Origin: Candidatus Vogelbacteria bacterium RIFOXYD1_FULL_46_19
Lineage (GTDB): Bacteria > Patescibacteriota > Minisyncoccia > Phycocordibacterales > XYD1-FULL-46-19
NCBI GenBank assembly: GCA_001824825.1
Contig: MHTK01000002.1
Span: 70,020 to 134,019, forward strand
DNA: 64,000 bases
Direction of reading: 5' to 3'
Shown here: piece after piece, positions 1 to 37,637 of the stretch
Layout of the letters: each line of letters opens with the position of its first letter
Numbering within the stretch: position 1 is the first letter of the stretch
Made by a program: the position numbers and the translations under genes
Notes under the pieces: generated by a model
What the model was told of the DNA's origin: nothing
Database searches by the model: none
What the model saw: only the letters and a program-made list of their open reading frames with translations

Positions 1-5
1 GGTCA

Positions 6-395
6 TCATTTTGTTGATTGTTTAGGTTGATGGGGTTTTACTCTGGGAACTAATTTTGCCAATTTTTCCTCGGCTTTAACTGTCATCGAAGTGACCACCA
101 CCATCGCTGTCCAACCCGGTAAATTATTTAAATAGGGTATAAATTCCAGGACCGGCATCCCAAAAAAAGAAATCGTGCGCCATTTGTTACCTAAAAATTT
201 TACTCCTTTCATTGTAAACCATAACCAAAAGGTAAGCCAAGCAAAAGGCCACACAATATAGCCCGCTACCACGCCCCCGATCCCCCCAAGTGGTAAAGTC
301 ACAAAAGTAAAAAAAGCCGGAATGCCATCAAAAAACAAAGCGGTAGCTATCATAAAAAAATTATCTATAAAGTTTAGTTTCGGCTGATCAGACAT
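6..395 (-). CDS. small polytopic membrane protein, last gene of T4SS-like operon
   Basis: 129-aa ORF with three hydrophobic segments; its start overlaps the end of the VirB4-like ORF (388..2208) by 8 nt, consistent with translational coupling. Confidence 0.5.
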   Translation of the reverse strand: MSDQPKLNFIDNFFMIATALFFDGIPAFFTFVTLPLGGIGGVVAGYIVWPFAWLTFWLWFTMKGVKFLGNKWRTISFFGMPVLEFIPYLNNLPGWTAMVVVTSMTVKAEEKLAKLVPRVKPHQPKQSTK

Positions 396-2208
396 TACCG
401 GGCGAGGATTGCATTTTTAACTCATCTTTGGCTTTTTTGATAGAGAGTAGTTGGGATGGGTCGGAAGTAATAATCTGGTCTTCGGTATAAGAGGCAATAA
501 TTTTAATCGCCACCCGCTTCAGGCCGGCAAAAAAGATTCCTTCACCCACATTAGACTCCAACAGTAAGAATTTTTCTTCATCAGTTAGATTGAAAGTTTG
601 TTGGATTAGGTCGATTGAAGCTGGCGACTGTTTGAGGAGGAGTTGGAGGGAGGAGTTGGTGATAATTGGTGTTCCATAAGGGCTACGGAGGAAGTCCCCT
701 ACGTCTTGGGTGATAGTGGCGACACCCAAGTAGTATTTACGACCTCGCTTGACCAAGGAGAAGAGAAAAGAGGCAGTGTCCTCGGCCTTCATCATCCACC
801 AAGCCTCATCCACCACCATGAGGCGCTTTTTTAAATTACGGCGAATAGTGTTCCAAATGTGGTGCATCACAATGTACATAGCGACCGGCTTCAAATCGTC
901 TTCCATGTCTCGAACGGAAAAGACCACAAATTGTTTATTGATATCCACGTTGGTTGGCTTATTCAAAAAGCCCGACCAGGTGCCCTGGGTGTATTTAGCC
1001 AGACGCTGGGCCAGGGACTCCCCGCCTTCCATCCCCGCCAAAACTAATTCCAGGTCAGACAAAAGTGGGACCGGTTTGTTGGTAAAGTCGGTGCTGGGGG
1101 TAATATCTTTGAGGGCGTAAGTCTCGGAAATGGCATTGTCTATAATCGAGTCCTCTTCCGGGGTTAAGCCCCCAAGCATAATACGCATCAAGCCGACTAG
1201 GTTGATAATATTAGACCGCAAGACGTCGGCCGGAGCCTCGTCTTCTCGCGGAAAAGGTAGATCAAACGGGTTGATATGATGCTCTGATGACAAAGAAATA
1301 TTGAAATAGCGTCCGCCCACAGCTTCGGCTAAAAATTCATACTCTCGCTCCGGGTCGATGACAATAACGTCGATACCGTACATTAAGCTACGTAAGAGCT
1401 CTAACTTGGTGGCATAAGATTTGCCGGAACCAGACTTGGCAAAAGTGACCGAGTTGTAGTTTTCAAGGGAAAAGCGATCAAAGAGAACGAGGGACGAGTT
1501 GTGGCGGTTGACGCCGTAGAGGATCCCCTGATTGGAGGTGAGGTCGAAAGATACAAAAGGGAAAAGGCTAGATAAGGGCGAGGAGTTGAGTTTGGTGTGG
1601 ATAGATAAAACATCATCACCAAGAGGGGCTACACTCTGGAACCCTTCTTGTTGTTGAAAGAGGGCCGGTTTAATGTAAACCAGCTTGGCGTCTAAAATAG
1701 ACTTGATTTCGGACTCAGTCAGGTCCAACTCTTCTTTGTCAGCCCCGTAAATGGTGATATAGACGCCAATATCAAAAATTCTTTCCTGGGCTTGCTGAAG
1801 CTGGTCGCGCAGAGTTTCAATATCGGAGTAGGCTGTATCCAAAATAGGATCCCGGACAAAACCTCGTTCTTCCTTAATACTAATCTGACTTTCTACCTCG
1901 GCTAATTTTTTTTGTAAATCACGCAAGGCGGTCCCAGTATCGATAGGGTGGATAAAAATTGACACATCGAACACCTTATCTAGGTTGATGATCGGTGAAA
2001 ACCATTCTTCGGTTAAAAAACGTGGATAAGAGATAATAAAGAAGGTGCGGGCCATCTTGCTACCCAAGCTCACTTGATTGGGGGTGATACGTAGAGCCGA
2101 CGGCGCAATAATGTCACGGAGCTCCAGTACCCCCATATCGTAGATATCTTGGGGCATCACCGGGTTGATGTTTGGAGTATTTTTTTCTTTTTTATTAAGT
2201 GGCCACAT
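388..2208 (-). CDS. VirB4/TraE/PrgJ-like type IV secretion ATPase, core ATPase part (606 aa)
   Basis: Walker A KSGSGKS, Walker B MVVDEAWW (DEAW signature of VirB4 family), N-terminal YPRFLTEEWFSPII resembles conserved VirB4 linker; directly follows in same frame the N-domain ORF 2212..2856. Confidence 0.8.
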   Translation of the reverse strand: MWPLNKKEKNTPNINPVMPQDIYDMGVLELRDIIAPSALRITPNQVSLGSKMARTFFIISYPRFLTEEWFSPIINLDKVFDVSIFIHPIDTGTALRDLQKKLAEVESQISIKEERGFVRDPILDTAYSDIETLRDQLQQAQERIFDIGVYITIYGADKEELDLTESEIKSILDAKLVYIKPALFQQQEGFQSVAPLGDDVLSIHTKLNSSPLSSLFPFVSFDLTSNQGILYGVNRHNSSLVLFDRFSLENYNSVTFAKSGSGKSYATKLELLRSLMYGIDVIVIDPEREYEFLAEAVGGRYFNISLSSEHHINPFDLPFPREDEAPADVLRSNIINLVGLMRIMLGGLTPEEDSIIDNAISETYALKDITPSTDFTNKPVPLLSDLELVLAGMEGGESLAQRLAKYTQGTWSGFLNKPTNVDINKQFVVFSVRDMEDDLKPVAMYIVMHHIWNTIRRNLKKRLMVVDEAWWMMKAEDTASFLFSLVKRGRKYYLGVATITQDVGDFLRSPYGTPIITNSSLQLLLKQSPASIDLIQQTFNLTDEEKFLLLESNVGEGIFFAGLKRVAIKIIASYTEDQIITSDPSQLLSIKKAKDELKMQSSPGNV

Positions 2209-2211
2209 AAA

Positions 2212-2856
2212 TTAGGTTTTTACTGTTGGTACTCCTCGTTCGCCTGGGTTGAATATTTTAAAGTATAACTCAATCAATTCTTCTGTATTTAAACGAGCGG
2301 TTTTTACCCCTACTCGCCCCAGGCCGTCGGCTACCACTCCCAAGCGCTGTTCCAGTTGAACTTTATTATTTTGGAAATCTTCTTTGGTGGCGATTTTGGT
2401 GGTTTGTTGTTTGGATTTAGATAAGAAAGGTAGTTTAGACATTATAGTATCAGTGGTTTGAATAACTGATGGCTGATACGGGACGACAATAAAAAAGGTT
2501 TTTGTCATCACATTAGTAGCCTCGGTGAAAGTCTTGATAAAGTTCATATACTCGCGGGACTGAATTTTAATCAGTTCATTAACATGCTCCTTGGTGACCG
2601 CTTCTAAACTTGCTAAATAGGGCTGAATATCAAGCTTTTTTGACTGCAGATGAATTTGAATGGAAAAATCAAGCGAGTTTAAAAAATTTTGATACTGCAT
2701 AATAACCGCTTCTCGTTCGTCGGTGGACTTGAGAGCAAAGTTGATCGATGAGCCGATTAGTACTCCGCGATAGCTACCATCTTTTAAAATGACAATCCCG
2801 TCGCGAATTTCACGTAGGGCGACAAAATCTTGCGTTGGCTTTGCTTTAATGGCCAT
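2212..2856 (-). CDS. VirB4-family N-terminal domain encoded as separate 214-aa ORF (split gene or pseudogenised N-part)
   Basis: Sequence IRDGIVILKDGSYRGVLIGSSINFALKSTDEREAVIMQYQNFLNSLDFSIQI matches the characteristic N-terminus of Gram-positive VirB4 (TcpF/PrgJ/TraE type); ends at TAA 2212-2214, 3 nt before and in frame with ATG of 388..2208. Confidence 0.6.
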   Translation of the reverse strand: MAIKAKPTQDFVALREIRDGIVILKDGSYRGVLIGSSINFALKSTDEREAVIMQYQNFLNSLDFSIQIHLQSKKLDIQPYLASLEAVTKEHVNELIKIQSREYMNFIKTFTEATNVMTKTFFIVVPYQPSVIQTTDTIMSKLPFLSKSKQQTTKIATKEDFQNNKVQLEQRLGVVADGLGRVGVKTARLNTEELIELYFKIFNPGERGVPTVKT

Positions 2857-2858
2857 AG

Positions 2859-3257
2859 CTAATTGATATGTTCTTTAACATCTAAACTCCAAGACAACTG
2901 GTCTAACCGGCTCTCTGATATTTTTGGTAAGTCGATAGCGGCTTGGGCAACGACGGGTTTGGAGCGGGGTTGAGCGGTGGAACCTTTTTGCCAGATGTAT
3001 AGTTTGCTACCGAGGTAATATTTGAGCATTGACTGAATCACGTAAATTAACGAGCGGTTATTGAGTTTGTAGAAAGCGAGACCCAAGCCGCCGGCGATAG
3101 CTATGGCCATCGGCACCAAGGCGATATAAAGCGGTAACAAGACATAAAGTAAAAAGGCTACCGCCAGTCCCCCGACCACGAAAATAAACTGCGGAAATGA
3201 CAAGGGGCCAAAAATTTTATTTTCGACTTCGATAAATTGTGGCACTTGGAAGTTCAT
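2859..3257 (-). CDS. PrgI/VirB3-like two-transmembrane T4SS protein
   Basis: 132 aa, two adjacent TM helices, positioned immediately upstream of VirB4 as in Gram-positive T4SS loci. Confidence 0.55.
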   Translation of the reverse strand: MNFQVPQFIEVENKIFGPLSFPQFIFVVGGLAVAFLLYVLLPLYIALVPMAIAIAGGLGLAFYKLNNRSLIYVIQSMLKYYLGSKLYIWQKGSTAQPRSKPVVAQAAIDLPKISESRLDQLSWSLDVKEHIN

Positions 3258-3488
3258 TCTATATATTTTGCTCGGTTGGAGTCATTTAGTCTGACGGTTT
3301 AAAACTTTAGGTATTAAATTAAGGACTTAAGTCTCCCTATTATTTCCATCTTTTATTTTTACCCTACTGGTTCACTAATTATACTACAGATCGTTCTTTA
3401 GTGGTGAATAGGTTGTTGAAAATAGTTAGGTTTTAGAAAATAAGGGTGAGGAAAAAGGCTGCCATCATCCCTGCCGTATGATTACTCT

Positions 3489-3953
3489 TTACTCTACCGA
3501 TTCGCGATAGGGGTCGGCGTCAGCCAAGCGTGACGGAGCCGGAGGTAGGTTTACATCATCCGACTCCCCGGTTTCAAAAATAGATTGCATTTTTTGGTTA
3601 AAAATGTTTTGGCCGGGCTTGGCAACAGGTGTTTCTAGGGGAGGATTTTTTAAGTAATCGCGAACTTGAGCAAATATTTTAAGGTCAATTTCGTGGGCAA
3701 TATCATTGGCTTTGGTTTGATCAAGGTTTAAGGTGCGAGCCAAGCGGGCGGCAAACAAGTGAGGCCGGGTAAAGCCAAAGAGGACTAAACCGGTTTCATC
3801 GGCCACTTTCCCAATCTCGTCAATATGGAGCTGGTGCTGGTCGCCAATCGCTTTAATAATTTTTGCGGTATCAACCGACAAGACAGCGTCTTGGACGATA
3901 GCTGGTAGACTTTTGAAACGTTCTTGAATTTGTTCGTGGGTGTAATCGGACAT
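3489..3953 (-). CDS. hypothetical protein in T4SS-like operon
   Basis: 154-aa ORF, soluble, no recognisable motif; operonic position between VirB6-like and PrgI-like genes. Confidence 0.5.
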   Translation of the reverse strand: MSDYTHEQIQERFKSLPAIVQDAVLSVDTAKIIKAIGDQHQLHIDEIGKVADETGLVLFGFTRPHLFAARLARTLNLDQTKANDIAHEIDLKIFAQVRDYLKNPPLETPVAKPGQNIFNQKMQSIFETGESDDVNLPPAPSRLADADPYRESVE

Positions 3954-3961
3954 TAATTATA

Positions 3962-6562
3962 TTAGTTATAGGTTGTTTTTGGACCAAATCTATCAGGTTT
4001 TTGATAGTCACCCGCTCCAGCCGGGGTTACCACTTCTGGGGTTTTAGGGGCAGCTGGCTTAGGTGTAGCTCGGGTGGCTAGATACTCTTTTGTCTCACTA
4101 TTTCCGTGCGAGTCAATTGCTTTTTCAAGTTGACGCCAGTTATTAGCGCTCATGTTTCCACTTTTCTCTATTTGCTCCAAGTCTTTTGGAGTCACTTCTT
4201 TAACTATTTTTTCATTAGCGAGGATTTCGGGCTTGATAGCCGCTCGGTTCTTGTAGGTTAGTTTACCCATTTCCTCAATGATGGTCGTGGCGGTCTGGTC
4301 GTCTAGTGACTGTAAGTCGGTGGCGTGGTTGTTGATGGCTTCTATAGCAGTGGCCGTGTCGTCTTTAGCCGCTTGCTCCATTAAATCTTTTTGAGCCTTT
4401 TTGATTTTATGGTCTTTGTCGCCAGCTTGGCCTTTACGTAGGGCGCTTATAGCTTGTTTTAGACTCTCGTTTGGTCCCTTGTTAGCTTCGGTTTCAAATA
4501 TGGCTTTATCGGTGTCGGAGAGGGCTTCGTAAGCCAGTTTCTGGTAGTCTGCACTTAAGGCGGCAAAGTTCTTTAATTGTTCTTCATTGTTGGCCTCTTT
4601 TGTTACCGGCTTGCCATCTTTATCTTTTACTACGTTACCCTCGGCATCCTTAACTACCGTCTGTCTCAGTTCTTCCCGCAAGCGCTTGCCGAACTCCTCA
4701 TCAGCTTTTTCTCTCCTTTCTGGATCTTTAATTCCATTGCGCAGGGCTTTCATGTTTTCAGCTAGGGCTGGATTATCTTTAACGTTTTTGATTTCCAGAT
4801 CAGCTTTTTCTCGGTCACTTAGCTTCTCGTAATTCTTCTTGCGGTCTTCTTCATTTAGGTTACTCAAATATTCCGCTTTAAGTTTAGGATTACGCAATTG
4901 CCCTGCTATTTCTTCTTGGCGCTTTTGTCGTCTGTCTACGGTTTGAGTGTAGCCCCGGTCGGTACCGAAGCCATATCCAGCCACACCCGCCATTGCTTTA
5001 TTGGCTGCCCAGCCTATCTTTGGAGTTTTAGCTGTTAATTTTTTCATTCCATCTGAATTCTGAGCCTTCTTAGCAAGTATACCAATAGTGTTGCGTCCAG
5101 CTACACCAACAGCTCCTACAGTAGCGCCCCGTGCTGCCCACTTGGACAAACCAATTGCTTTGTTTGAAAAAGAGCTTCCTAGTTGACAGCCAACTTTCTG
5201 GGCAATTAACATTGAACCTAGCATTAAGCCGTTTAAGGTTAAAAAGGTAAAAATTTGTCCGGTCGGACCACTGGTGGTAATAGAATTAGAAGCTGCAGTA
5301 TTTAAATTTTTCATTATACCCAGTGTCACATACAAAAAAAACATAAATAGTGGGGCAAATAGCAGGTCACAGCGTAATCTGGTTGACCATAGGTTAAAAA
5401 CTTCTTTCAAGGGCGTGAAAGTATAGCCCAAAAAAGCTAAAGGTGAGGTCATGATTAAAAATAGGAGCGATACTCCTCGAATTAAAAACAAAAGAGAGGC
5501 TGCTAGAAGGGTAAATATGGTTATGGTTTGTAATATTAAAATCCCAATGTTTTTTACAAGTACCCCAGCAGTTAGCTTGAAATAGCCACTATTGTAGTCA
5601 TTGGGAGATTTAATTCCTTCAAAAAATGATAATTGATCTCTGAATGGTTGAGCGATACTTGGATCTTTATTGGGGTCATCTCCAATTTGTTGGTAAAAAG
5701 TCATGGCCACAATATTGGAGGCATCAATGGCAACTTTGGTTATAAAACCACTGAAATTAACCAGTAAGGCTATGACTATCACATTGACCAAGGTTTTTTT
5801 GGTGTTGACATTTGGTAGTTGTAAGATGGTTCCAATGGCAAGGTAAAGTAATATAAAAATAAAGAAAATGTTAGACAAGTCTCTGGCAACCGTCCATCCA
5901 ATATCAATTACCGACAAGTCTGTTACGTAATCCCTGAAGTCGGTGATAGTGGTTTTAACTATGTAAGCAAAAAGGGTATCAGCTAAACTAATTACCCAAG
6001 TGTAAAGCCACAGTAAAATACTAGATATGCCGTCTAAAATCCCTGCAAGACAGCCGTCCCAATTTGGATTAGTGCTGATAAGGTTGCAGTTGTAAACTTG
6101 CTGATCTCGTATGTTTTGAACTCTTTCACTGTAGGTGTTACTACTGGTTGTGCTGTCTTGAAGACGTTCCTCTCTAAGAGCAATTTGTTCTCTTAGTCTT
6201 TCAGCTTCCTGGGTGTTGTTATTATCTTCCGCAATTTGGGCGAGCGCATTATCTCTCTGAATAGTTAATCTTTGGATTTCTCTTCCTATTTCACCTATAG
6301 CCAAAATGTTGTCTTCTGCATCTCTATCCCCATCAATTCCAAGCCAATTTGTAAAAAAATCACTCCACCTTGTGGTTCCCCAGTCAGCCTGGCTTGCTGC
6401 TAATTCATCATATTGATTTTGTAGATTTGCTATATCTTCCTCAATTATTCTTACGAATTCCTCTTGGGATATTGGAGTTTGGGCATTTATTAATAGGGGT
6501 GATAGTAAAGTACATATCACTAAAGTAGAAATAATAATTTTTTTTAAGAATGAGATTCTCAT
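3962..6562 (-). CDS. VirB6/TrbL/TcpH-like polytopic membrane protein with long charged C-terminal tail
   Basis: 866 aa; N-terminal signal/TM, block of ~7-8 TM helices in aa ~180-470, then ~400-aa K/E/D-rich low-complexity tail; start overlaps upstream ORF by 4 nt. Confidence 0.65.
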   Translation of the reverse strand: MRISFLKKIIISTLVICTLLSPLLINAQTPISQEEFVRIIEEDIANLQNQYDELAASQADWGTTRWSDFFTNWLGIDGDRDAEDNILAIGEIGREIQRLTIQRDNALAQIAEDNNNTQEAERLREQIALREERLQDSTTSSNTYSERVQNIRDQQVYNCNLISTNPNWDGCLAGILDGISSILLWLYTWVISLADTLFAYIVKTTITDFRDYVTDLSVIDIGWTVARDLSNIFFIFILLYLAIGTILQLPNVNTKKTLVNVIVIALLVNFSGFITKVAIDASNIVAMTFYQQIGDDPNKDPSIAQPFRDQLSFFEGIKSPNDYNSGYFKLTAGVLVKNIGILILQTITIFTLLAASLLFLIRGVSLLFLIMTSPLAFLGYTFTPLKEVFNLWSTRLRCDLLFAPLFMFFLYVTLGIMKNLNTAASNSITTSGPTGQIFTFLTLNGLMLGSMLIAQKVGCQLGSSFSNKAIGLSKWAARGATVGAVGVAGRNTIGILAKKAQNSDGMKKLTAKTPKIGWAANKAMAGVAGYGFGTDRGYTQTVDRRQKRQEEIAGQLRNPKLKAEYLSNLNEEDRKKNYEKLSDREKADLEIKNVKDNPALAENMKALRNGIKDPERREKADEEFGKRLREELRQTVVKDAEGNVVKDKDGKPVTKEANNEEQLKNFAALSADYQKLAYEALSDTDKAIFETEANKGPNESLKQAISALRKGQAGDKDHKIKKAQKDLMEQAAKDDTATAIEAINNHATDLQSLDDQTATTIIEEMGKLTYKNRAAIKPEILANEKIVKEVTPKDLEQIEKSGNMSANNWRQLEKAIDSHGNSETKEYLATRATPKPAAPKTPEVVTPAGAGDYQKPDRFGPKTTYN

Positions 6563-9500
6563 CTTGCTAGGGTGATTGATTTAGTGATGTTCCCACCAGG
6601 GCTGGTGCATTCTAGCGAATAGTTGGGAGACAGGCTCGCGTCTATTGCTAAGCCATTTAAAGCAAAATAATAAGAACTAAAAACTGGATAAGCCGGATTG
6701 GTTGACGAGTTTCTGGCTAAGTTTATTTTTTCTAGTAATTTTTGACCTAGTTGGGATTGGGTTAGATTTTCAGTTACGGTAAATTCAACTAAATTAGTGG
6801 ACCCTACGTAAGGCCAAAAGGATACGGTGTATTTATCTCCAATTTGGATATCAGCCGGTAGCGGTAGTTTGTTAAGAGTAGATGTTTTAGAAGAGTTAAC
6901 CGAAGTGGCTATTTCTATGGAGTTATCAACATTGTTTCGAGTACGAATGAAACGCGGTTTGAAATTTAGGGGCAAAGATATGGTTCTTTCACTCTCACTA
7001 GGTACAACTGACCCTTTGGCATAGATTAAAGTGGGAGCGTCTGTACTATTTCCAGAAAACCAGTTGTTGGTCGCTCGACAGTTTGTGGCGCCAGGTATAG
7101 ACCAAGCTAGTTGGGCGGTGTTTGGTTGCCCGGCATTAACTTGAGAAAGTGGCAAAAGACTGTAATCAAAACTAGGTTCGGTGACAGGATTGTCGCTTTC
7201 TCCACTTCCTCCACCACCAAATAAGCTACCCAAGAGGTTTAAGATTTGGCCAATATCAAAGGAACCGGGGCCGGAACCCCCACCACCTTGGTCTGATGGG
7301 GTGTGCGTCCTAACTTCCTCTAAAGTTGGCCCACCACCAGGTGAAACATCGCCCGGCTCAGCTTCTTTATACAAATCTAAGCGGTAATTAAGGATGTCGG
7401 CAGCAGTTTCTTTGACTTGAATAGCCGGGGTAATAGTCTTCCACCGGCGACAAGCTTGACCGTCTTCGGTAAACTCTTCACACTCGCGGACTGGTAGATA
7501 GCCTTGGGCGGCTACTATTTGATTAATAGCGTCATTTTCTGCATCTGCTTGTCGTTGGACCAAGATTCGTTGATTGATTTTATAAGATGTTTCGGGACTG
7601 TTTGGAATAAAAGGATTTCTAATATTTTGATATAGTTTGGTCCACTCTTCACTGTCTGTTACTTCGCCCGTCACAAATCGTTGATAGTCTTCCAAAGAAA
7701 CTGTTGAAGTATCTGGTTTGATTGGGAGTTCTTTTAAAATTAAACTCTTGGAGACAACTTTGAATGAATCTTCAGATTTATCTAGATCATCCAAAAACAC
7801 ATTGGTTGCTTCAGGAATTACCAACTCATCCAAATGTGTCCTCAGGTTTTCCACATAAAGCGGCGCGTCTGGGCCTTGGCCGGTCGAGTCGTAACCTTTT
7901 TTGGTGTAGTCGATAAGCTCGGTTCGGTATTGTTCGGACTCTTCGTTGGCTTGTCGCCTTAGATCGACATCTTCGATAAATTCTTTTTGTTCGAAGGCGG
8001 TTTGGATGCGTTGAATCGATTTTAAGTAAGTACACATTTCGACGGTCAACTCTTCGATTTTTTTGGTGGTCTTGTCAATTTCACCGGCATAATTGTCGAT
8101 ACTGACGGTGGTCCTCATTAGTTTACCCTCTACCTCTTGAACGGGTACGTACACTCCTAAGCCCGGGATCGGTAAGTTTAGACCGCCTAATATTGGAACG
8201 TTGCCGAGTAAACCCCCAGCTACATTACCCACCGCTCCTTGCACCACGTTTCCTACTGCTCCGGTGATGCCAGTAGCCCCCAGTACATTGCTGGCAAACC
8301 CATCTAGGGCGCCACTAAAGCTATCGGTAATACCTCCCAAGACGCCACCAAAGGCGTCGGTGATCGGGCTGGTGATGTTGCCGATTAGGTTGCTGGTCAT
8401 ATCGGTAATTGGCGACAGGACCGAATCGGTAATACTGTCTAACATTCCGGTGACTGGGCTCATGATGCCGTCCATTAAACCACTTAGCTGATCAGTGATG
8501 GGAGAAATCAGGCCGTCGGTGATACCACTTAAGGCATCATCAAATACACCGGTGAATTGGCCAATAGTGTCGCCAATCACATCATCAAACACGCCAGTTA
8601 GTTCACCAAAAGTTTGGTCGATCACTGAGTCAAATTCGCCTAGTACTCCGTCTAAGACTCCGTCTAACATAGAGTCAAATTCGCCCGTTAAATCGTCTAA
8701 AATACCGCTGAGTTGTTGATCAATAACACCGGTAAATTGGCCCATCGTTTGATTAATAACATCATCTAAACTGCCGAGGGACTGGTCTAAAATTGAATCT
8801 AAGTTACCGGTGACCGAGTCTAAGACACCGTTTGTGATTTGATCGATAGATGCGTTAAGTCCGTCTAGAGCGGTGCCGGTGAATTCGTTTAACATTTCAT
8901 CGGTCAGGCGGTCGATCATGTCACTCGTTACCCCCGCTTCCCCGCTAAGTTCGTCGATTAGACCATCTTGAATCAGGGCACCTAATTCGGCCTCCATAAT
9001 TTGGGGTAGTTGTTCGGCTAGGGCTCCCGGTAACTGAGTGGTGAGGATTTCTTGCATCGCCGCCGGCAGGCCACTTCGGACGCTGTTTTGTAGAGCGTCG
9101 GGTAGTCCCGCTTCAATACTGCCCGTCATCGCTTGGCCAAAGTTGTCTTGAATCGAGCTGGTCATCAAGTCGGACATTATTTGTGACAAATCTTCTCGGA
9201 GGAGGGGTTCGATCCCTCCGTTGGTGGCGGCGTTGATGGCCTCGGGTAAGCGGTCTTGTAAGTCGGCTCGGACTAGATTGCCAAGTTCTTCGGGTAAATG
9301 TTCACGGACTTGGGTGTTTAGTTCAGCCGGTAGGCGGGTGGCAATTTCCTCTTGCAACTCAGCTGGCAAATTATCTTGCAGGACGTCGGAGGTGGCTTGG
9401 TTTAGAGCTTGGTTCATGGCTTGCCCGGCGGGGCTAGCGGCTCCCATTCCCCCTATACCACTTTCTTCCAGACATTTCTTTAAGTCTTCTTTTTGTTGTT

Positions 9501-9768
9501 GCTCTAATTTTTGTGCCTCCTCTTTAGATGCTTCCACATTAGCCTCGGCCCTTGGGTCATTTCCCCCACTATTGTTTATTTCTCGAGTAGAACTGAAGTT
9601 AAACCCACCCATACTGTGAGTAGAGGTGACACCGTTGGGGGTAGTAAATCCACCCTGAGCTTTTAAGCGAGGTAAGCCGATCATAAAAACAAAGATCACT
9701 AGGATTAATCCGATGGCGGCCAAAGTGATAGTTGTTTTAAGAGAAAAACGGTTCATAAATCTAATCAA
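6559..9768 (-). CDS. large secreted/surface protein with hendecad (11-residue) tandem repeats and Cys-containing C-terminal domain
   Basis: 1069 aa; N-terminal TM/signal; LPxxLxxxI-type repeats aa ~130-260, then about 200 aa of FxxVxDxxxGx 11-mer repeats, glycine linker GGGGSGPGS, non-repetitive C-terminus; overlaps VirB6-like gene by 4 nt. Confidence 0.7.
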   Translation of the reverse strand: MIRFMNRFSLKTTITLAAIGLILVIFVFMIGLPRLKAQGGFTTPNGVTSTHSMGGFNFSSTREINNSGGNDPRAEANVEASKEEAQKLEQQQKEDLKKCLEESGIGGMGAASPAGQAMNQALNQATSDVLQDNLPAELQEEIATRLPAELNTQVREHLPEELGNLVRADLQDRLPEAINAATNGGIEPLLREDLSQIMSDLMTSSIQDNFGQAMTGSIEAGLPDALQNSVRSGLPAAMQEILTTQLPGALAEQLPQIMEAELGALIQDGLIDELSGEAGVTSDMIDRLTDEMLNEFTGTALDGLNASIDQITNGVLDSVTGNLDSILDQSLGSLDDVINQTMGQFTGVIDQQLSGILDDLTGEFDSMLDGVLDGVLGEFDSVIDQTFGELTGVFDDVIGDTIGQFTGVFDDALSGITDGLISPITDQLSGLMDGIMSPVTGMLDSITDSVLSPITDMTSNLIGNITSPITDAFGGVLGGITDSFSGALDGFASNVLGATGITGAVGNVVQGAVGNVAGGLLGNVPILGGLNLPIPGLGVYVPVQEVEGKLMRTTVSIDNYAGEIDKTTKKIEELTVEMCTYLKSIQRIQTAFEQKEFIEDVDLRRQANEESEQYRTELIDYTKKGYDSTGQGPDAPLYVENLRTHLDELVIPEATNVFLDDLDKSEDSFKVVSKSLILKELPIKPDTSTVSLEDYQRFVTGEVTDSEEWTKLYQNIRNPFIPNSPETSYKINQRILVQRQADAENDAINQIVAAQGYLPVRECEEFTEDGQACRRWKTITPAIQVKETAADILNYRLDLYKEAEPGDVSPGGGPTLEEVRTHTPSDQGGGGSGPGSFDIGQILNLLGSLFGGGGSGESDNPVTEPSFDYSLLPLSQVNAGQPNTAQLAWSIPGATNCRATNNWFSGNSTDAPTLIYAKGSVVPSESERTISLPLNFKPRFIRTRNNVDNSIEIATSVNSSKTSTLNKLPLPADIQIGDKYTVSFWPYVGSTNLVEFTVTENLTQSQLGQKLLEKINLARNSSTNPAYPVFSSYYFALNGLAIDASLSPNYSLECTSPGGNITKSITLAR
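8270..8900 (-). repeat. degenerate 33-nt periodic coding repeats (hendecad peptide repeats)
   Basis: Recurring motifs such as atcatcaaa[ct]acaccggtgaattggcc and gagtcaaattcgcc at ~33-nt spacing inside ORF 6559..9768. Confidence 0.6.
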
Positions 9769-10456
9769 GATTGAAATAAAGGTTTAAGCTGGCTTCTTTG
9801 GGAAAAATAAGGTTGTGGTTGGCAAAGTAAACGTTAATATTTTCGGTGGCCCAAAAAAAGCTGGAGGCCCTTTTCAAATATTCTTGACCACTTTCTAAGC
9901 CGAGGGTCGGATTATTAAAAATATTGGCCATATTTTCTAAAAGTGGGATAACTTGACTGAGGCTGTTGACCAAGCGTACATGAACTAGCTGGGCATCTTT
10001 AGGAACTGACAGTTTGAGAAGTTCTGTTAGGGCTAATTTGTGCATATTGATCGTTTTTTGAATGGGGGCGAGTTGACTCTGGTTTTGATTGTTGAGCGCG
10101 GCCACCATTACCTCCGCTTCGTTAGGGCGGACAGTTTCGTAAGGCTTGAGAATTCTAAAAATATCGGTGGCGTATTGCCTGATGGTGGCCTCACTCACCT
10201 CCTCGTTTATCTTTAAGTTGCCAACTTGGTAGCGAGTGTAGCTCTTGTCGGAAGCGGTAGCTGTGAGACCTTTTTGGTTTAAGCGAGACGCGACGATGTT
10301 TTCCAGGTCTCGTTCTTTATCGAGCAGGGACTGGTAGTAGGTCAGGTCAGCCTCTTCTTTTTCCGACTCTTGTTGCAAGCCGAGCCAACGTAAAACGCCC
10401 AAAACAGCAACTAGGACTAAAACAATCAGTAAGATTACTGCCAGCTTTTTCTTCAT
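9761..10456 (-). CDS. N-terminally membrane-anchored protein, first gene of T4SS-like operon
   Basis: 231 aa; MKKKLAVILLIVLVLVAVLGVL anchor; overlaps downstream ORF by 8 nt. Confidence 0.55.
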   Translation of the reverse strand: MKKKLAVILLIVLVLVAVLGVLRWLGLQQESEKEEADLTYYQSLLDKERDLENIVASRLNQKGLTATASDKSYTRYQVGNLKINEEVSEATIRQYATDIFRILKPYETVRPNEAEVMVAALNNQNQSQLAPIQKTINMHKLALTELLKLSVPKDAQLVHVRLVNSLSQVIPLLENMANIFNNPTLGLESGQEYLKRASSFFWATENINVYFANHNLIFPKEASLNLYFNLD

Positions 10457-10563: not shown

Positions 10564-11430
10564 ATGGTGATGAAATTTTATTTGACCACTTTTTTTATAG
10601 CTGCCTTTTTACTGTTGGCATTATTACCAGTACCGCTAGAAGCTGCCCTAAACCGAAATTTATCTTTGGGGTCAAGTGGGTCCGACGTGTGGGAGCTGCA
10701 AAAGTTGCTTAATCGGGATCTGGCGACCATTATTGCCGGGAGTGGCCCGGGGTCCAGTGGTCTGGAAACCGTTTTTTTTGGCCCCCTAACCCAGTTGGCG
10801 GTGAGTCGCTTCCAAGAAAAATATGCCCCCGAAGTCTTGCACCCCCTTGGTTTAAGCCGTGGTACTGGCTATGTGGGGCAATTAACTCGCCAAAAACTAA
10901 ATAGCTTATTAGGGGCGGGAGCTGGGGCTACTTTAGCGATACCCTCAGCGTCGATGCCAGTTTATATCCCTCCCTTACCCCCTCCCATCCCCACGAGTGA
11001 GCTTGGGAGTGATGAAAAAAGTCCGACAAAACCAAGTAGTACGACCAAAAAATCAACAACGGCTAGTGAAATCGACCTATTAAACCAAACCGCTCAGTCT
11101 TTAGCTGGACTGACGGCGCCGGAGCGCTCAAAATTTATGTCTGTAGTGTCTATTTCACCCACTAGTGGTGGTCCAGGGACCACGGTAACCATTAAAGGTC
11201 ATGGTTTTTCCGAGAATAGTAATAAAGTTTATTTAGGTTATGATATCAAAGATAAGGTGCGCTCTACTAAGGACGGCACGGAAATTAAAGTTAAGATTGA
11301 AAACCCCTTTACCGATGGTGATTATAAAACTAGGGCGTCGGGTCAAGGGAGTCTAGAGATTCCCTTGGGTATTATGGTGGAAAATAATACCGGAATAAGT
11401 AATCACTTTATTTTTACCTTAAAATTTTAG
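10564..11430 (+). CDS. secreted protein with peptidoglycan-binding (PG_binding_1-like) domain and IPT/TIG-like C-terminal domain
   Basis: Signal peptide; LSLGSSGSDVWELQKLLNRDL and FGPLTQLAVSRFQ motifs typical of PG-binding domain; SISPTSGGPGTTVTIKGHGF resembles IPT/TIG fold. Confidence 0.6.
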   Translation: MVMKFYLTTFFIAAFLLLALLPVPLEAALNRNLSLGSSGSDVWELQKLLNRDLATIIAGSGPGSSGLETVFFGPLTQLAVSRFQEKYAPEVLHPLGLSRGTGYVGQLTRQKLNSLLGAGAGATLAIPSASMPVYIPPLPPPIPTSELGSDEKSPTKPSSTTKKSTTASEIDLLNQTAQSLAGLTAPERSKFMSVVSISPTSGGPGTTVTIKGHGFSENSNKVYLGYDIKDKVRSTKDGTEIKVKIENPFTDGDYKTRASGQGSLEIPLGIMVENNTGISNHFIFTLKF

Positions 11431-11439
11431 ATCTTTACT

Positions 11440-11805
11440 ATGTGGCGAAACTTTTTTATTAACAAAATTATTATCATTCCGCTAGTACTGGTTATTTTTG
11501 CCCTGTCGATTCCGTTTAAAGCCGAAGCTGGCCCAGGCTTACCCTTTGGGGGTCAAATTCTCTCAGTTATTCCCTGCTTGTGTAGTGCCAATCTTTTGAT
11601 AACCATGAGGCCTATTGGCCCCTTGTCGCCCCCTCAGGTTATATTTGGGCCCTCCAGTATATTATTTCCTTTCTATCAATTGTGGCGCCCCGGGGCTTAT
11701 CTTCTAGGTAACTATGGTCCACCGGTGCCCTGTGTGGTGTTTGCAATAATTTGTGTCCCCATTTCTGTGGCCCCACTTATATTGATGACCGGAACCTCGA
11801 TGTAG
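11440..11805 (+). CDS. hypothetical small hydrophobic protein
   Basis: 121-aa ORF, hydrophobic, Cys/Pro-rich; no homology recognised. Confidence 0.3.
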   Translation: MWRNFFINKIIIIPLVLVIFALSIPFKAEAGPGLPFGGQILSVIPCLCSANLLITMRPIGPLSPPQVIFGPSSILFPFYQLWRPGAYLLGNYGPPVPCVVFAIICVPISVAPLILMTGTSM

Positions 11806-11808
11806 TTT

Positions 11809-12570
11809 TTAGAGTAAATTTTGCCAATCGGTGAGAGTCAGGTCTTCGGCACGACTTTTTTCCGGTAGATCCCAACTGGTAAGGACTCCTTCGGCTAGGT
11901 TTAAGTTCGAGCGGAGCAATTTTCGTTTTTGGGCAAAGCCTTTTTTGATTAGGTCAAAGAAGGCTTTTTCAGTGAAGTCGCCAAAATAATTTTTATTAAT
12001 ATCACTGATGGCGAGAATAGCCGAGTCGACATTGGGTACGGGCCTGAAGGCCCCCCGGGGGACTTTGGCAATTAGTTTAGGTACACCATAAGCTTTAACC
12101 GACAGCGATAAAATACTTTCTTTGTGGTTTAAAGCGACAATTCTGTCCGCCACTTCTTTTTGCACCAAAATAACTGCCTGGGTGGGCTGGTGTTCGGCCT
12201 CTAAAAACTGACGGATAATTTCCCCGGTGATGTAGTAAGGGATATTGGCGACCAGTTTGTAGGGCGCTAAGGCCTGTAATAGGTTGGGCGGTAAATCTAA
12301 AGCGTCACATTCTAGTAGGGTTAGTTGGCCTTTTTCAATCTCCACTTTAAATTTTTCGGCCAAGGGCTCCATTAGGCGCCGGTCTTTTTCGATAGCGGTA
12401 ACTTTGGCGTCAGCGGCGAGTAAGCGCTCGGTTAAAGCTCCGCGCCCGGGGCCGATTTCCAGTACTTGCTCCCCTGGCTTTAGGCTGGCGGCGTCAATTA
12501 TTTTTTGCAGGGCCGACTGCGATACCAGCCAGTTTTGACCCAAAGATTTCTTAGCAAAAATATGATCCAT
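11809..12570 (-). CDS. rsmA: 16S rRNA (adenine1518/1519-N6)-dimethyltransferase
   Basis: N-terminal KKSLGQNWLVSQSALQKII and SAM motif VLEIGPGRGALT typical of KsgA/RsmA. Confidence 0.85.
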   Translation of the reverse strand: MDHIFAKKSLGQNWLVSQSALQKIIDAASLKPGEQVLEIGPGRGALTERLLAADAKVTAIEKDRRLMEPLAEKFKVEIEKGQLTLLECDALDLPPNLLQALAPYKLVANIPYYITGEIIRQFLEAEHQPTQAVILVQKEVADRIVALNHKESILSLSVKAYGVPKLIAKVPRGAFRPVPNVDSAILAISDINKNYFGDFTEKAFFDLIKKGFAQKRKLLRSNLNLAEGVLTSWDLPEKSRAEDLTLTDWQNLL

Positions 12571-15019: not shown

Positions 15020-15424
15020 ATGTTAGAACAAAAATTATCATCAAATATTGAAGCTGAAATTGCCGACTTGTCGCGCCAAATTGAAGCCAAAAGACGGTTG
15101 TTGGAAACCGAAAGTGGTATGGTGGAGGATAAACAAGTGGTCGCAGCCGTGGTTAAAGTGCCAGCTGAGGACACCTCTGTTCCTATCCTACGGCCCGTTA
15201 GTGGTAATCAGAGCAATCAAGACGGATCGCTTTCGTACTTAGACAGCTTGGATGATCAAACTAAAGAAAGAGTTTTGGAGTTGGTTGATAAAGTTTTTGA
15301 GCGGGGTTTGGGCCGAACCATTAGTGAAGCTAAAAAGCTGGAGGCCCTCGACCTAGACGCTTTTCACGATACGCTGACCGATCGAGTTTACAACGAGTTA
15401 AAAAAGCGCGGATTGGTGAAGTAA
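15020..15424 (+). CDS. hypothetical protein upstream of coupling ATPase
   Basis: 134-aa ORF, coiled-coil-like N-terminus. Confidence 0.45.
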   Translation: MLEQKLSSNIEAEIADLSRQIEAKRRLLETESGMVEDKQVVAAVVKVPAEDTSVPILRPVSGNQSNQDGSLSYLDSLDDQTKERVLELVDKVFERGLGRTISEAKKLEALDLDAFHDTLTDRVYNELKKRGLVK

Positions 15425-15483: not shown

Positions 15484-17841
15484 ATGGACTTTATAATATA
15501 TAGTTTGCTGGGTTTAGGACTCTTGCTGGCCCTCGGGGGCCTATGGTGGTATCAGCGCCGAGGTAATTTTGGCAGTTTAAACTTAAAAGTGCTACTGGTT
15601 AAGATTCCCGAGCGAGAAAGTAAGGACCCGAAAGAATTTTTACATGACATTGCTTTAAGTGAGCAACTTTTTAGCTCACTGTCGGCTATCAAGGAGCCGA
15701 TTGTATTTGAAACCGCTGTTCATAATACCGGCGGAGAAATTTATTTTTATCTAGCTGTTCCGGCTGATCGGGTCGAGTTTGTGTCGCGACAGATCCAAGG
15801 TCTATTCCCGGCGGCCGAGGTGGATTCGGCTTTGGATTACACTATTTTTGCTACCGAACACGGAATCAGGGCCGGTTACTTGGCTCTGGAGGAGTCACCG
15901 GTGGTGCCAATTCGCACTTACTTGGAAAGCGAAGTTGATTCTTTTGCTCCCATTGTGAGCACTTTGTCGCGGTTGCGGGAAGAAGGCGACGGGGCCGCCA
16001 TCCAAATTGTATTGCGGCCGACCAGCTCCAAATTTAAGCAAAAAGTTCAGTCTATTTTAAGCCGGTTAAAAAAAGGTGAATCACTTAATGAAGTACTGAA
16101 AAGTTATAAGGCTTGGGCACCTTTGGTGGATTTGGCTAAAGATTTGTCGGGGAGTAATAAAAGCCCCGATTCTCTGCCTTCGGAACCCAAGTCGATGGAT
16201 GATGAATTGGTAGCTTCACTGGAAACCAAGATCAAAAAGCCTTTGTTTGATGTGAATGTTCGCCTGATTACCGCGGCGGATACGCCCAACGAGGCCAGTG
16301 ATCTTTTGTTATCAATTAGTGGTTCTTTCAGCCAGTTTTCGGCACCTCGACGCAATAGTTTTAAAATTGTCTCCCCTCGTAAAATTACGCGTTTGGTTTA
16401 CGAATATATTTTTAGAGAATTCAATGAGGATCAGGTAATGGTTTTGAATACCGAAGAAATTGCTAGTATTTTTCACTTGCCTACCACCTCGACCGATGTC
16501 CCTCGTATTAAATGGTTGAAAAGTCGTGAAGCGCCACCACCGGAAAATTTACCCACCGCTGGGGCGGTGATTGGTCAGAGTGTGTTCCGAGGTGACATCA
16601 AACCAGTTCGCTTATCTGATCAGGATCGGCGTCGTCATTTCTACGTGATCGGGCAAACTGGTACTGGTAAATCGTTCTTTATGTTGAACCAGGTGGTCCA
16701 GGATATGCAAAACGGTAAAGGCTTATGCGTGATTGATCCCCACGGCGACTTGGTGGATAAAATTTTAGAGCGGGTGCCGGCCAGTCGCTTGGAAGATGTG
16801 ATTGTCTTTAACCCGGGTGATGTGGCGAGACCCTTGGGCCTTAATATGTTGGAGTTTAACCCAGCTCGACCCGAGGAAAAGACTTTTATCGTTAATGAGA
16901 TTCAGTCCATTTTTAACCGCCTCTTCTCGGAGGAAACCATGGGGCCAATGTTTGAGCAGTATATGCGTAATGCCCTGCTCTTACTGATGGAAGATGCTAA
17001 GCATGAACCAGCCACGCTCATGGAAGTGCCGCGAATTTTTACTGATCCGGATTTTCGGTCGCGTAAGCTGGCCCGTATTACCAACCCCACCGTCATCGAC
17101 TTTTGGGAAAAAGAGGCCGCTAAAACCAGCGGCGAGCAAGGTTTGGCCAATATTACCCCGTACATAACGTCTAAGTTTGGCAACTTTATTGCCAATGATT
17201 ATATGCGGCCGATTATTGGTCAACCAAAATCCGCCTTTAATTTTCGGGAGGTAATGGATGACGGTAAAATTCTTTTGGTTAATTTGGCTAAAGGTAAAAT
17301 TGGGGATATTAATGCTGGACTCTTGGGGATGGTGGTGACCGGGCGACTACTCCTTTCGGCTTTGTCTCGCCAGGATATGGCGGAAGACGATCGCCGGGAC
17401 TTTTATTTATACATCGACGAGTTTCAGAATTTCACCACCGACTCGATCTCGGTTATTTTATCGGAAGCCCGCAAGTACAAACTGAATCTGATTTTGGCTC
17501 ACCAATTTATTGCCCAGCTATCGGATGATATTCGGGAGTCGGTGTTTGGTAATGTGGGCTCCTTGGCGGCCTTCCGGGTAGGTATGACCGACGCGGAAGT
17601 GCTGGTCAAACATTTCCACCCCACCTTTAGTGAAAGTGATTTAATTAATATTGAAAATCAAGAGGCTTTTGTCCGGCTCTTAATTAATGGCGAGCCGGCT
17701 CGACCTTTTAATATTAAAACGGAACAAGTAGTTGGCGGTTCCGATGAACTGCGAGAACAACTGAAAGAACTATCGCGACTTACTTATGGTCGGGATATTG
17801 ATGAAGTAGAGCGGGAGATTTTGGCACGACTAAGGCACTAA
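15484..17841 (+). CDS. VirD4/TraG/TraD-like type IV coupling protein (FtsK/HerA-superfamily ATPase)
   Basis: N-terminal TM helix; Walker A GQTGTGKS followed by CVIDPHGD; Walker B YLYIDEFQNF and LILAHQFIAQL (Qs..QL-like T4CP motif). Confidence 0.6.
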   Translation: MDFIIYSLLGLGLLLALGGLWWYQRRGNFGSLNLKVLLVKIPERESKDPKEFLHDIALSEQLFSSLSAIKEPIVFETAVHNTGGEIYFYLAVPADRVEFVSRQIQGLFPAAEVDSALDYTIFATEHGIRAGYLALEESPVVPIRTYLESEVDSFAPIVSTLSRLREEGDGAAIQIVLRPTSSKFKQKVQSILSRLKKGESLNEVLKSYKAWAPLVDLAKDLSGSNKSPDSLPSEPKSMDDELVASLETKIKKPLFDVNVRLITAADTPNEASDLLLSISGSFSQFSAPRRNSFKIVSPRKITRLVYEYIFREFNEDQVMVLNTEEIASIFHLPTTSTDVPRIKWLKSREAPPPENLPTAGAVIGQSVFRGDIKPVRLSDQDRRRHFYVIGQTGTGKSFFMLNQVVQDMQNGKGLCVIDPHGDLVDKILERVPASRLEDVIVFNPGDVARPLGLNMLEFNPARPEEKTFIVNEIQSIFNRLFSEETMGPMFEQYMRNALLLLMEDAKHEPATLMEVPRIFTDPDFRSRKLARITNPTVIDFWEKEAAKTSGEQGLANITPYITSKFGNFIANDYMRPIIGQPKSAFNFREVMDDGKILLVNLAKGKIGDINAGLLGMVVTGRLLLSALSRQDMAEDDRRDFYLYIDEFQNFTTDSISVILSEARKYKLNLILAHQFIAQLSDDIRESVFGNVGSLAAFRVGMTDAEVLVKHFHPTFSESDLINIENQEAFVRLLINGEPARPFNIKTEQVVGGSDELREQLKELSRLTYGRDIDEVEREILARLRH

Positions 17842-18107: not shown

Positions 18108-19157
18108 TTGTCCCCAAGGCTTATTTTAGGTTTTTTGGCCGTTATCCTCATTTTTACCACTTACCACACTGCTCATGCTGGGGTGTTTTCAGCTTTAGGT
18201 AGTAAGTTGAGTGGCGAAACTCCTTTTTATGTTCTAAATCAGGCCGTGGGGGCCAACTCTCAGAAGCTAGCTCTACTGGAACCGGAAGCAACTTTGGCCA
18301 GTAGTGCTCGTGGTGGCTTGGATCCGCAAATCGAAGATGGAGTGGCCCTGGCCCCGGTGGAAGGTTTCGAGGGATCGGCTCAAGCTACAGCTATTATTCC
18401 CCCCAACGACCAAATTAGTGTTTATGTAGTCAAAGAGGGAGACAGTTTGTCACAGGTGGCTGAAATGTTTGGGGTGTCCGTCAATACTATTATGTGGGCC
18501 AACAATATTAAGAAGTCCACTAGTATTAGTGAGGGTGATGTGCTGGTGATTTTACCTATTACTGGTGTTCGACATATCGTGAAGGCTGGAGAAACGATTG
18601 CTAAGATCGCTAAACTCTACAGTGCTGATACGACAGAAGTGGCTAATTATAATGCTTTAGCGGAAGGAACGACGCTTAAAGCCGGGGATGAAATAATAGT
18701 TCCACACGGCGTCATCCCGGCGCCGAAGGCTCCAACTAAGAAAGCACTGGTTAAATCCAAGGATGGCTCCTCTCCTTCGACCGCGTCTAAGTACGCTAAC
18801 TTACCCGATTCTTCTGGTTACTTTATCCAGCCTTTGGTGGGGGGACGCAAAACCCAAGGTATTCACGGTAATAATGCCGTTGACTTGGCGGCGAGCTTAG
18901 GAACGGAGCTACGAGCGGCGGCGGCTGGTAAAGTTATTATTGCGCGAACTGGTGGCTGGAACGGAGGTTATGGCAACTACGTGGTCATTAGTCATGATAA
19001 TGGTTCTCAAACTTTGTACGCTCATATGTTAGATGTGGTGGTGTCTCCCGGCCAAGCAGTAGCCCAAGGACAGAGTATTGGTCACCTTGGGTCTTCTGGT
19101 AATTCGACCGGACCTCATGTTCACTTCGAAATTCGGGGGGTCCGCAATCCCTTCTAG
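18108..19157 (+). CDS. secreted LysM-LysM-M23 family peptidase (peptidoglycan hydrolase)
   Basis: Signal peptide; two LysM repeats (YVVKEGDSLSQVAE..., HIVKAGETIAKIAK...); C-terminal M23 motifs HGNNAVD...GYGNYVVISH...GPHVHFE. Confidence 0.85.
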   Translation: MSPRLILGFLAVILIFTTYHTAHAGVFSALGSKLSGETPFYVLNQAVGANSQKLALLEPEATLASSARGGLDPQIEDGVALAPVEGFEGSAQATAIIPPNDQISVYVVKEGDSLSQVAEMFGVSVNTIMWANNIKKSTSISEGDVLVILPITGVRHIVKAGETIAKIAKLYSADTTEVANYNALAEGTTLKAGDEIIVPHGVIPAPKAPTKKALVKSKDGSSPSTASKYANLPDSSGYFIQPLVGGRKTQGIHGNNAVDLAASLGTELRAAAAGKVIIARTGGWNGGYGNYVVISHDNGSQTLYAHMLDVVVSPGQAVAQGQSIGHLGSSGNSTGPHVHFEIRGVRNPF

Positions 19158-25138: not shown

Positions 25139-25176
25139 AATTTAAATTACTTGACCGTGGGTCGCCTAACTTCGTT

Positions 25177-30395: not shown

Positions 30396-30407
30396 AATAG
30401 TCTAAAA

Positions 30408-31877: not shown

Positions 31878-32007
31878 AGGATATATATAACATAAACATA
31901 CACTATAGTCAAGTAAATAGTCTTAAGATTGTTGTAAATTATAAAAGATGTATAATATTTATATACACTTTTGATTAAAATAAGCTAGATATATCTATAT
32001 TTTTCGT

Positions 32008-37612: not shown

Positions 37613-37637
37613 AAAGAAACTAGTACTCCACTTGTGT

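Follow-up and report, generated by a model that had tools for sequence, protein, structure and literature searches.

A probable Patescibacteria-type, relaxase-free type IV secretion system beside the replication origin in groundwater Paceibacteria

Introduction

What purpose does a conjugation-type secretion machine serve in a bacterium when no relaxase is found with it? The question is raised by a gene cluster at the start of a 64,000-nucleotide stretch of Candidatus Vogelbacteria bacterium RIFOXYD1_FULL_46_19 (contig MHTK01000002.1, positions 70,020 to 134,019; hereafter the window), which a first, sequence-only reading had described as a Gram-positive-style type IV secretion system (T4SS) without a relaxase. 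The T4SSs of Patescibacteria are among the few machines implicated in the life of ultrasmall bacteria on other cells, and a 2025 review treats such systems as a recognized T4SS group. According to a survey of 3,035 Patescibacteria genomes (Quinonero-Coronel et al. 2025, PMC12102498), VirB4 is present in 2,417 of them and forms a clade nested in MPF_FATA; genes for TrsD, PrgI/VirB3, VirB6 and VirB2-like pilins stand beside virB4, VirB8 homologues are few, genes for type IV coupling proteins (T4CPs) lie mostly far from virB4, relaxases occur in only 103 genomes, and in Paceibacteria the T4SS is close to dnaA and ksgA. The Saccharibacteria counterpart, in which pilins are present and a relaxase is absent, is essential for epibiotic growth, as determined by transposon sequencing (Wang et al. 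2023, PMC10633639). Here, we report a computational analysis of the window and of related loci, from which we conclude that the cluster is very likely a Patescibacteria-type, MPF_FATA-derived, relaxase-free chromosomal T4SS in groundwater Paceibacteria, with a probable role in host interaction and not in conjugation.

Results

Organization of the locus

The cluster comprises eight open reading frames (ORFs), all on the minus strand, at 6–395, 388–2208, 2212–2856, 2859–3257, 3489–3953, 3962–6562, 6559–9768 and 9761–10456. Their co-direction and coordinates are as first described; the description of the genes as overlapping is only partly accurate, because the three overlaps of 4–8 nt (388–395, 6559–6562 and 9761–9768) are accompanied by three small gaps of 2–8 nt and by one of 231 nt (3258–3488), between the genes for the PrgI-like and 154-residue proteins. 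This longer gap, which contains no minus-strand ORF of at least 20 residues and no Rfam match, could be the site of an internal promoter. A promoter and terminator scan gave counts that were not above those of shuffled controls, and the only Rfam matches were four tRNAs, all far from the cluster.

The operon continues past the window edge. Positions 1–9 (minus strand) hold the first three codons of the next gene, for a secreted, beta-rich protein of 346 residues, which is cut at position 1. A groundwater metagenome contig (L081), which shows 8 differences from the window in an overlap of 12,208 bases and reaches 9.6 kb past window position 1, carries three further co-directional genes after that for the 129-residue protein, encoding products of 346, 302 and 405 residues in that order, to give an operon of 11 genes. 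Past the 405-residue gene follow yidC, rnpA, dnaA and dnaN (dnaA at ~4.6 kb beyond the window edge); as these lie directly beyond the operon, the cluster adjoins the replication origin. On the opposite side, ksgA is found at 11809–12570 of the window.

The VirB4 motor

The gene at 388–2208 (minus strand) encodes a VirB4 ATPase of 606 residues, an assignment already made in the sequence-only reading and confirmed here by a match to the NCBIfam model for CD1110-family VirB4 (NF045971) at 3.3e-110 and 369.5 bits, above the cutoff of 325. It has both Walker motifs, A (GSGKS) and B (VVDEAW), in intact form. The same product matched the Pfam families P-loop_TraG (2.6e-26) and AAA_10, and, in searches of Protein Data Bank (PDB) sequences, the VirB4 domain of Thermoanaerobacter (4AG5, 1.1e-42) and TrwK of R388 (about 1e-7); BLASTP aligned it to residues 215–772 of PrgJ from pCF10 with 26% identity (1.2e-39). 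Because the alignments begin at PrgJ residue 215 and at position 185 of the NCBIfam model (positions 185–733 of 752 are covered), the protein lacks the usual N-terminal ~200 residues.

The missing part is encoded immediately upstream, by a gene at 2212–2856 (minus strand) that ends three bases before virB4 begins. Its product of 214 residues has no transmembrane (TM) segment and matched positions 3–163 of NF045971 (1.4e-8), as well as positions 102–236 of VirB4_plasma and 53–206 of TrbE; it matches these full-length VirB4 models better than NCBIfam TrsD, against which it scored only 0.0064 and 16.3 bits (cutoff 200). Since it covers the absent N-terminus of the same model, VirB4 is split into two polypeptides, encoded by two genes that tile one model, as in TrsD/TrsE. 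The earlier label of an uncharacterized envelope protein for 2212–2856 is accordingly replaced by that of a VirB4 N-terminal domain protein. The relationship is visible only against curated full-length VirB4 models: comparisons of the 214-residue family with its own VirB4 partner and with the PrgJ N-terminus by hhalign were both negative, a profile search of the family against PDB sequences gave no meaningful match, and a precomputed PF26593 (TraC-like) label was not reproduced by hmmscan, perhaps owing to a difference in library version or filter. The family is the best conserved of the accessory genes, with members of about 52% identity in 81 of 82 loci (here and below, loci were compared among the 80 closest to the window VirB4, or 82 for ORF-family counts, with the accessory families counted by jackhmmer over the ORFs of the 82).

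PrgI/VirB3, VirB6-like and pilin-like proteins

The assignment of the gene at 2859–3257 (minus strand) to the PrgI/VirB3 type likewise holds: its 132-residue product matched PF12666 at 1.3e-8 and 35.7 bits (cutoff 27), contains two TM segments within residues 15–65, and aligned to pCF10 PrgI in hhalign with P = 0.004. The gene was found by tblastn in 76 of the 80 loci.

The product of 3962–6562 (minus strand; 866 residues) is an extended polytopic protein with an N-terminal signal or TM segment, approximately six TM segments at residues 175–460 and a long hydrophilic, K/E-rich C-terminal tail. The polytopic character proposed for it is therefore borne out, and its homology to VirB6 is weakly supported along three independent lines: Pfam TrbL matches in 4 of 44 family members (best 6e-5), an hhalign alignment of the family to pCF10 PrgH over 172 columns (P = 6.5e-4) and a precomputed TrbL_3 label, marked weak. 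An hmmscan of the protein itself returned nothing and did not reproduce the TrbL_3 label (again perhaps through a library-version or filter difference), and a profile search of its family against PDB sequences gave no meaningful match.

A pilin-like protein of 302 residues is encoded outside the window on the operon strand (L081:13244–14152, ~1.0–2.0 kb beyond window position 1). It consists of a signal peptide, two hydrophobic helices, a low-complexity linker and a C-terminal domain. Three members of the pilin family matched Pfam T4SS_pilin at 6e-5 to 1.2e-3, all under the 26.6-bit cutoff, while the C-terminal domain matched HH_signal above cutoff (5e-8) together with Peptidase_M15_3 and contains the zinc motifs H-x6-D and H-x-H. 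The pilin part is present in 69 of 82 loci, followed by variable C-termini (120–615 residues overall); the fusion to a peptidase was seen only in this lineage and, judged by the motif HYEGRAVDI, in its closest relative (L001). This M15/Hedgehog-type domain is the sole hydrolase domain encoded in the operon. Of the two other genes beyond the window edge, the family of the secreted 346-residue protein is present in 76 of 82 loci and that of the 405-residue anchored protein in 68.

Chromosomal context and mobility genes

All 80 of the closest VirB4 loci, at 72–83% identity, come from Patescibacteria or unclassified metagenome-assembled genomes, most of them labeled Paceibacteria or Parcubacteria. 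The genes recur in the order uvrD–ksgA–(divergent pair)–231–1069–866–154–PrgI–214–VirB4–129 (numbers denote product lengths), and the single chromosomal position, between uvrD/ksgA and dnaA, is retained over this range of identity. The conserved gene order shows that the cluster is chromosomal and vertically kept.

No relaxase, plasmid replication (Rep) or oriT-type gene was detected by Pfam scans of ~55 of the larger window ORFs (64 kb) and the 9.6 kb of L081, about 73 kb in all, and no relaxase occurs among the conserved neighbors of the T4CP-like gene (see below) in 80 loci. The sequence-only reading had reported none of these in view, and the wider scan agrees with it; oriT was not searched for directly. 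An adjacent relaxase, which would have pointed to an ordinary conjugative element, is likewise not found within ~73 kb. Together with the passage of VirB4 over the CD1110-family cutoff, these results uphold the description of a Gram-positive-style (MPF_FATA-type) T4SS without a relaxase.

These observations bear on the possibility that the cluster is an integrated conjugative element, or the remnant of one, with its relaxase and oriT outside the region in view. Its core parts (VirB4, PrgI, the VirB6-like protein and the T4CP-like protein) do derive from Gram-positive conjugation machinery, and a tyrosine recombinase with Phage_integrase and SAM-like N-terminal domains is encoded at 34814–35818 (plus strand). 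However, the recombinase gene lies 24 kb from the cluster, among housekeeping genes, and its product looks XerC/D-like rather than like a mobile-element integrase. A mobile element also fits poorly with a single chromosomal position shared by species whose VirB4 proteins are only 72–83% identical, with a guanine-plus-cytosine (GC) content over the cluster that is not atypical, and with ~73 kb of sequence that offers housekeeping neighbors and neither relaxase nor Rep. With relaxases as scarce among Patescibacteria as PMC12102498 reports, we regard an integrated element as highly improbable.

The T4CP-like module

On the strand opposite to the operon, at 15484–17841 (plus strand), lies a gene for a divergent, 785-residue T4CP-like ATPase (VirD4/TrwB superfamily) with intact Walker motifs. 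Two Pfam T4CP families match just above their cutoffs (TrwB_AAD_bind, 28.5 bits against 20.5; T4SS-DNA_transf, 23.6 against 20.1), and a profile of the family found TrwB (2.5e-6) as its best match in the PDB, with DotL at 9.7e-4. The NCBIfam T4CP models TraD and CD1115 gave 23–37 bits against cutoffs of 250–650, covering the P-loop only. In place of the two-TM N-terminus typical of T4CPs there is one hydrophobic segment (residues 1–22), and between it and the P-loop stands a conserved domain of ~350 residues of no recognized type. Full-length homologs with 54–70% identity occur in over 560 metagenome contigs.

Directly upstream, at 15020–15424 (plus strand), a gene encodes a protein of 134 residues that is probably cytoplasmic, as it has neither a TM segment nor a signal peptide; it has no Pfam or NCBIfam match. 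Its conserved C-terminal motif reads DAFHDAL..KLY.EL..RG. In 80 metagenome loci used for neighborhood counts, this gene precedes the T4CP-like gene in 75–77, whatever the wider context, while the other neighbors vary (phosphoglycerate kinase, ribosomal protein L21, glycosyltransferases). The constancy of the one and the variability of the others mark the 134-residue protein as belonging with the T4CP-like ATPase rather than with the VirB4 operon. The two genes form a separately conserved module whose nearness to virB4 is lineage-specific. A VirD4-like ATPase near the cluster, as originally described, is thus retained at the level of the two Pfam families, with the provisos that it has one TM segment rather than two and that its position is a feature of this lineage.

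The LysM-M23 peptidoglycan peptidase at 18108–19157 (plus strand), previously listed as a nearby wall hydrolase, is identified securely by Pfam (M23 4.4e-29, LysM 9.4e-20). Its linkage is loose: it follows the gene of the T4CP-like protein in 12 of 80 loci, and it is close to VirB4 in 5 of 80.

A relaxase-free T4SS with an ATPase of DNA-translocase type nearby could also be read as a machine for importing DNA or nucleic acid, comparable to archaeal Ced or Helicobacter ComB, that feeds an organism unable to make nucleotides. Patescibacteria are described as being without de novo nucleotide synthesis (PMC10633639), and weak NCBIfam similarities link VirB4 to CedB (4.9e-10) and the T4CP-like protein to CedD (5.3e-3). 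Both Ced matches, however, are generic P-loop matches far under their cutoffs, and the T4CP-like gene mostly lies apart from virB4. In Southlakia epibionticum, moreover, the T4CP is reported to be non-essential while the T4SS is essential, and loss of ComEC ends competence with no effect on viability, so that natural transformation is not an essential route of nucleotide acquisition there. We therefore consider an import function unlikely.

Accessory proteins of the operon

Three of the remaining members of the operon (6–395, 3489–3953 and 9761–10456) were put forward in the sequence-only reading, together with 15020–15424, as candidate novel structural components. They are indeed conserved, lineage-specific genes, and none of them matched a known T4SS role in our searches: hhalign comparisons of the accessory families with PrgD, PrgE, PrgF, PrgG, PrgK, PrgL and PrgM and with PcfA and PcfB of pCF10 were all negative. 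Their common label as envelope proteins is appropriate for the products of 6–395 and 9761–10456, which have membrane segments, and not for those of 3489–3953 and 15020–15424, which have neither a TM segment nor a signal peptide.

The first gene of the cluster, at 9761–10456 (minus strand), encodes a protein of 231 residues for which AlphaFold2 (AF2), with an alignment of 18 sequences, predicted an N-terminal TM helix followed by an extracytoplasmic four-helix bundle (predicted local distance difference test score, pLDDT, 78; predicted template modeling score, pTM, 0.68; bundle above 90). A Foldseek search of the model against the PDB gave no match at E ≤ 0.001 and returned nothing but generic bundles, among them the ligand-binding domains of chemoreceptors, and a profile search of the family against PDB sequences gave no meaningful match. 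The protein was considered as a VirB8, which has an NTF2 fold, and this candidate was rejected because the predicted fold is an all-alpha four-helix bundle with generic Foldseek matches only. The family is represented in 51 loci; a homolog search with a single sequence returned only two proteins, so that an alignment query was used. Many homologs (P0003–P0015) are 290–350 residues long, with PF18884 before the helical bundle; the window protein is without this insert.

The gene at 6559–9768 (minus strand) encodes an anchored surface protein of 1069 residues (1065 in the gene call of the contig itself). A TM segment at residues 7–39 is followed by ~440 residues of an acidic, G/L/D/T-rich region with a hydrophobic periodicity of 3.7–4.0 residues, typical of fibrous helical proteins, then by a conserved core of ~230 residues (576–800) with two invariant cysteines and by a variable C-terminus. 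Positional homologs exist in 37 loci. No Pfam or PDB match was obtained for the protein or its core family, and no tandem repeats were detected in the DNA of this repetitive gene.

The protein of 154 residues encoded at 3489–3953 (minus strand) lacks both a TM segment and a signal peptide and is therefore probably cytoplasmic. The AF2 model shows a six-helix domain (residues 6–102, pLDDT about 90) and then a disordered linker, which leads to a C-terminal DPYRE motif that is near-invariant in the family (69 loci); this near-invariance suggests that the motif is a putative docking peptide. The best E-value of the model in Foldseek against the PDB was 2.6, and a profile search of the family against PDB sequences found nothing.

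Directly after VirB4, the gene at 6–395 (minus strand) encodes a small integral membrane protein of 129 residues with hydrophobic segments, whose family holds this position in 50 loci. It has no Pfam or NCBIfam match and no relatives detected outside this gene context; hhalign found it unrelated to PrgI, PrgF, PrgG and PrgH and, like the 121-residue protein described next, similar to the pilin family only in signal and TM segments.

On the other side of the cluster, a divergent pair of envelope genes (10564–11805, plus strand) encodes proteins of 288 and 121 residues. The longer carries PG_binding_1 and TIG domains (Pfam); the shorter combines a P/G/C-rich region with a signal peptide and a TM segment at the C-terminus. 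The pair stands between ksgA and the gene for the 231-residue protein in 15–24 loci and may be associated with the T4SS cluster.

Two further readings turn on these proteins. The Paceibacteria version could be a structurally distinct T4SS, in which the roles of VirB8, VirB1 and adhesins have passed to unrelated, lineage-specific proteins and the pilin carries an M15/Hedgehog-type peptidase; the four-helix bundle, the 1069-residue fibrous protein, the 346-residue beta-rich protein, the 405-residue anchored protein and the DPYRE protein may be the stand-ins. If this were true, a polymerized pilus would bring a wall-cutting enzyme into contact with the wall of the epibiont itself or of its host, but we think it doubtful and assign it a small probability. 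Alternatively, VirB4 might power no more than a pilus or attachment organelle on the cell surface, through which no substrate moves, with the T4CP-like module active in an unrelated process. In keeping with such an organelle, 69 of 82 loci have a VirB2-like pilin gene in the operon, which also encodes a large fibrous protein of the cell surface and further envelope proteins, and in most relatives the T4CP gene is not syntenic with virB4. A platform for translocation is suggested instead by the polytopic VirB6-like protein, which is conserved, and by the DPYRE protein of the cytoplasm, a feature that is compatible with a pilus as well; on balance, a structure that moves no substrate seems improbable.

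Other features of the window

The rest of the window is occupied by housekeeping genes, among them those for polynucleotide phosphorylase, the CCA-adding enzyme, RNase Y, ClpP, trigger factor, NusA, triosephosphate isomerase, phosphoglycerate kinase, RecJ and a PilB-like ATPase. The last of these, at 53199–54842 (plus strand), is a T2SSE ATPase of the PilB/GspE type that includes an MshEN domain; it probably belongs to the type IV pilus system known from Patescibacteria. The longest ORF of the CCA-adding enzyme (36140–37702, minus strand, GTG start) overlaps a tRNA at 37637–37708 (minus strand); the true start of the enzyme is probably further downstream. Two adjacent ORFs of 431 and 419 residues with no Pfam match (23843–26436, minus strand) lie beside a gene for a DksA/TraR-type zinc-finger protein (23441–23809). 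The GC content falls to 0.343 at 30001–32000, against ~0.45 elsewhere, in a segment that covers a 489-residue 2-hydroxyacid-dehydrogenase-like ORF (30408–31877), located after a 511-residue methyltransferase ORF; this segment may be acquired DNA.

Discussion

The locus matches the descriptions of PMC12102498 and PMC10633639 feature by feature, and is an already published kind of system. What it offers is a clean and complete Paceibacteria example, an 11-gene operon beside oriC, together with several leads for work on relatives that can be cultivated: the split VirB4 tiling, the 134-residue partner of the T4CP-like protein, the DPYRE motif and the pilin–peptidase fusion.

In the mechanism that we propose for a relaxase-free T4SS of this kind, a VirB4 hexamer tethered by VirB3 and VirB6 would drive the extraction and assembly of pilin and possibly also the passage of substrates across the single membrane and the wall. 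The peptidase domain and the surface proteins would make an opening in the wall and establish contact with the host cell, and the machine as a whole would serve the interaction between epibiont and host, by protein delivery, attachment or uptake. Such an interaction is more probable than conjugation because no relaxase is present, and the function in host interaction is a probable one by analogy with the work on Saccharibacteria.

Several points weigh against this interpretation. Essentiality is known for one Saccharibacteria species only, which belongs to a different class. The place of the window VirB4 in the published clade is suggested by its identity to closest relatives and not by a tree. 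The VirB6 assignment is a weak one, drawn from sub-threshold matches, and so is that of the 302-residue protein as a VirB2-like pilin with an M15/Hedgehog-type peptidase as fusion partner, in which the sub-threshold matches concern the pilin part. VirB8-like and PrgK-type VirB1 components were not detected by hhalign against PrgL, PrgD and PrgK. Finally, the T4CP-like protein may stand outside this machine, given that its matches center on the P-loop and that its gene is mostly unlinked to virB4.

Comparison with known systems

The closest published counterpart is the Paceibacteria arrangement of PMC12102498. It shares with the locus a VirB4 of MPF_FATA type with a TrsD-like gene next to it, PrgI/VirB3, the lack of a relaxase and a chromosomal site near dnaA and ksgA, as well as, on weak or sub-threshold matches, a VirB6-like protein and a VirB2-like pilin; there is no difference in kind. 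Beyond what the consulted text of that survey describes, the present locus adds the exact tiling of the VirB4 model by two products, the 134-residue partner of the T4CP-like gene, the pilin–M15/Hedgehog-type fusion of this lineage and the predicted folds of the 231- and 154-residue proteins.

The T4SS of Southlakia epibionticum ML1 (SEML1_0006–0019), also from an ultrasmall member of the epibiotic Patescibacteria, is likewise chromosomal and Gram-positive-like, with pilin genes and no recognizable relaxase. It differs in class (Saccharimonadia), in having an array of six pilins in contrast to the one pilin gene here (on L081), and in the peptidase and lysozyme genes directly downstream of its virB4; essentiality was shown by experiment in that species, whereas the present locus is known from sequence.

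The pCF10 Prg/Pcf system of Enterococcus faecalis, the prototype of MPF_FATA, is related through VirB4 (26% identity to PrgJ), the PrgI family and the similarity of the VirB6-like family to PrgH (P = 6.5e-4). In contrast to pCF10, no PcfG-type relaxase, PrgK-type hydrolase, VirB8-like protein of the PrgL/PrgD kind or homology to the adhesins PrgB/PrgC was detected here; the present locus also has a two-part VirB4 and a pilin-like gene, and it is chromosomal rather than plasmid-borne. The Trs systems of pGO1 and pSK41, finally, share the arrangement of the motor: the gene for a shortened VirB4 is immediately preceded by one for a small protein akin to the VirB4 N-terminus. They differ in belonging to conjugative plasmids with a relaxase, and the TrsD model itself reaches only 16.3 bits on the 214-residue protein (cutoff 200).

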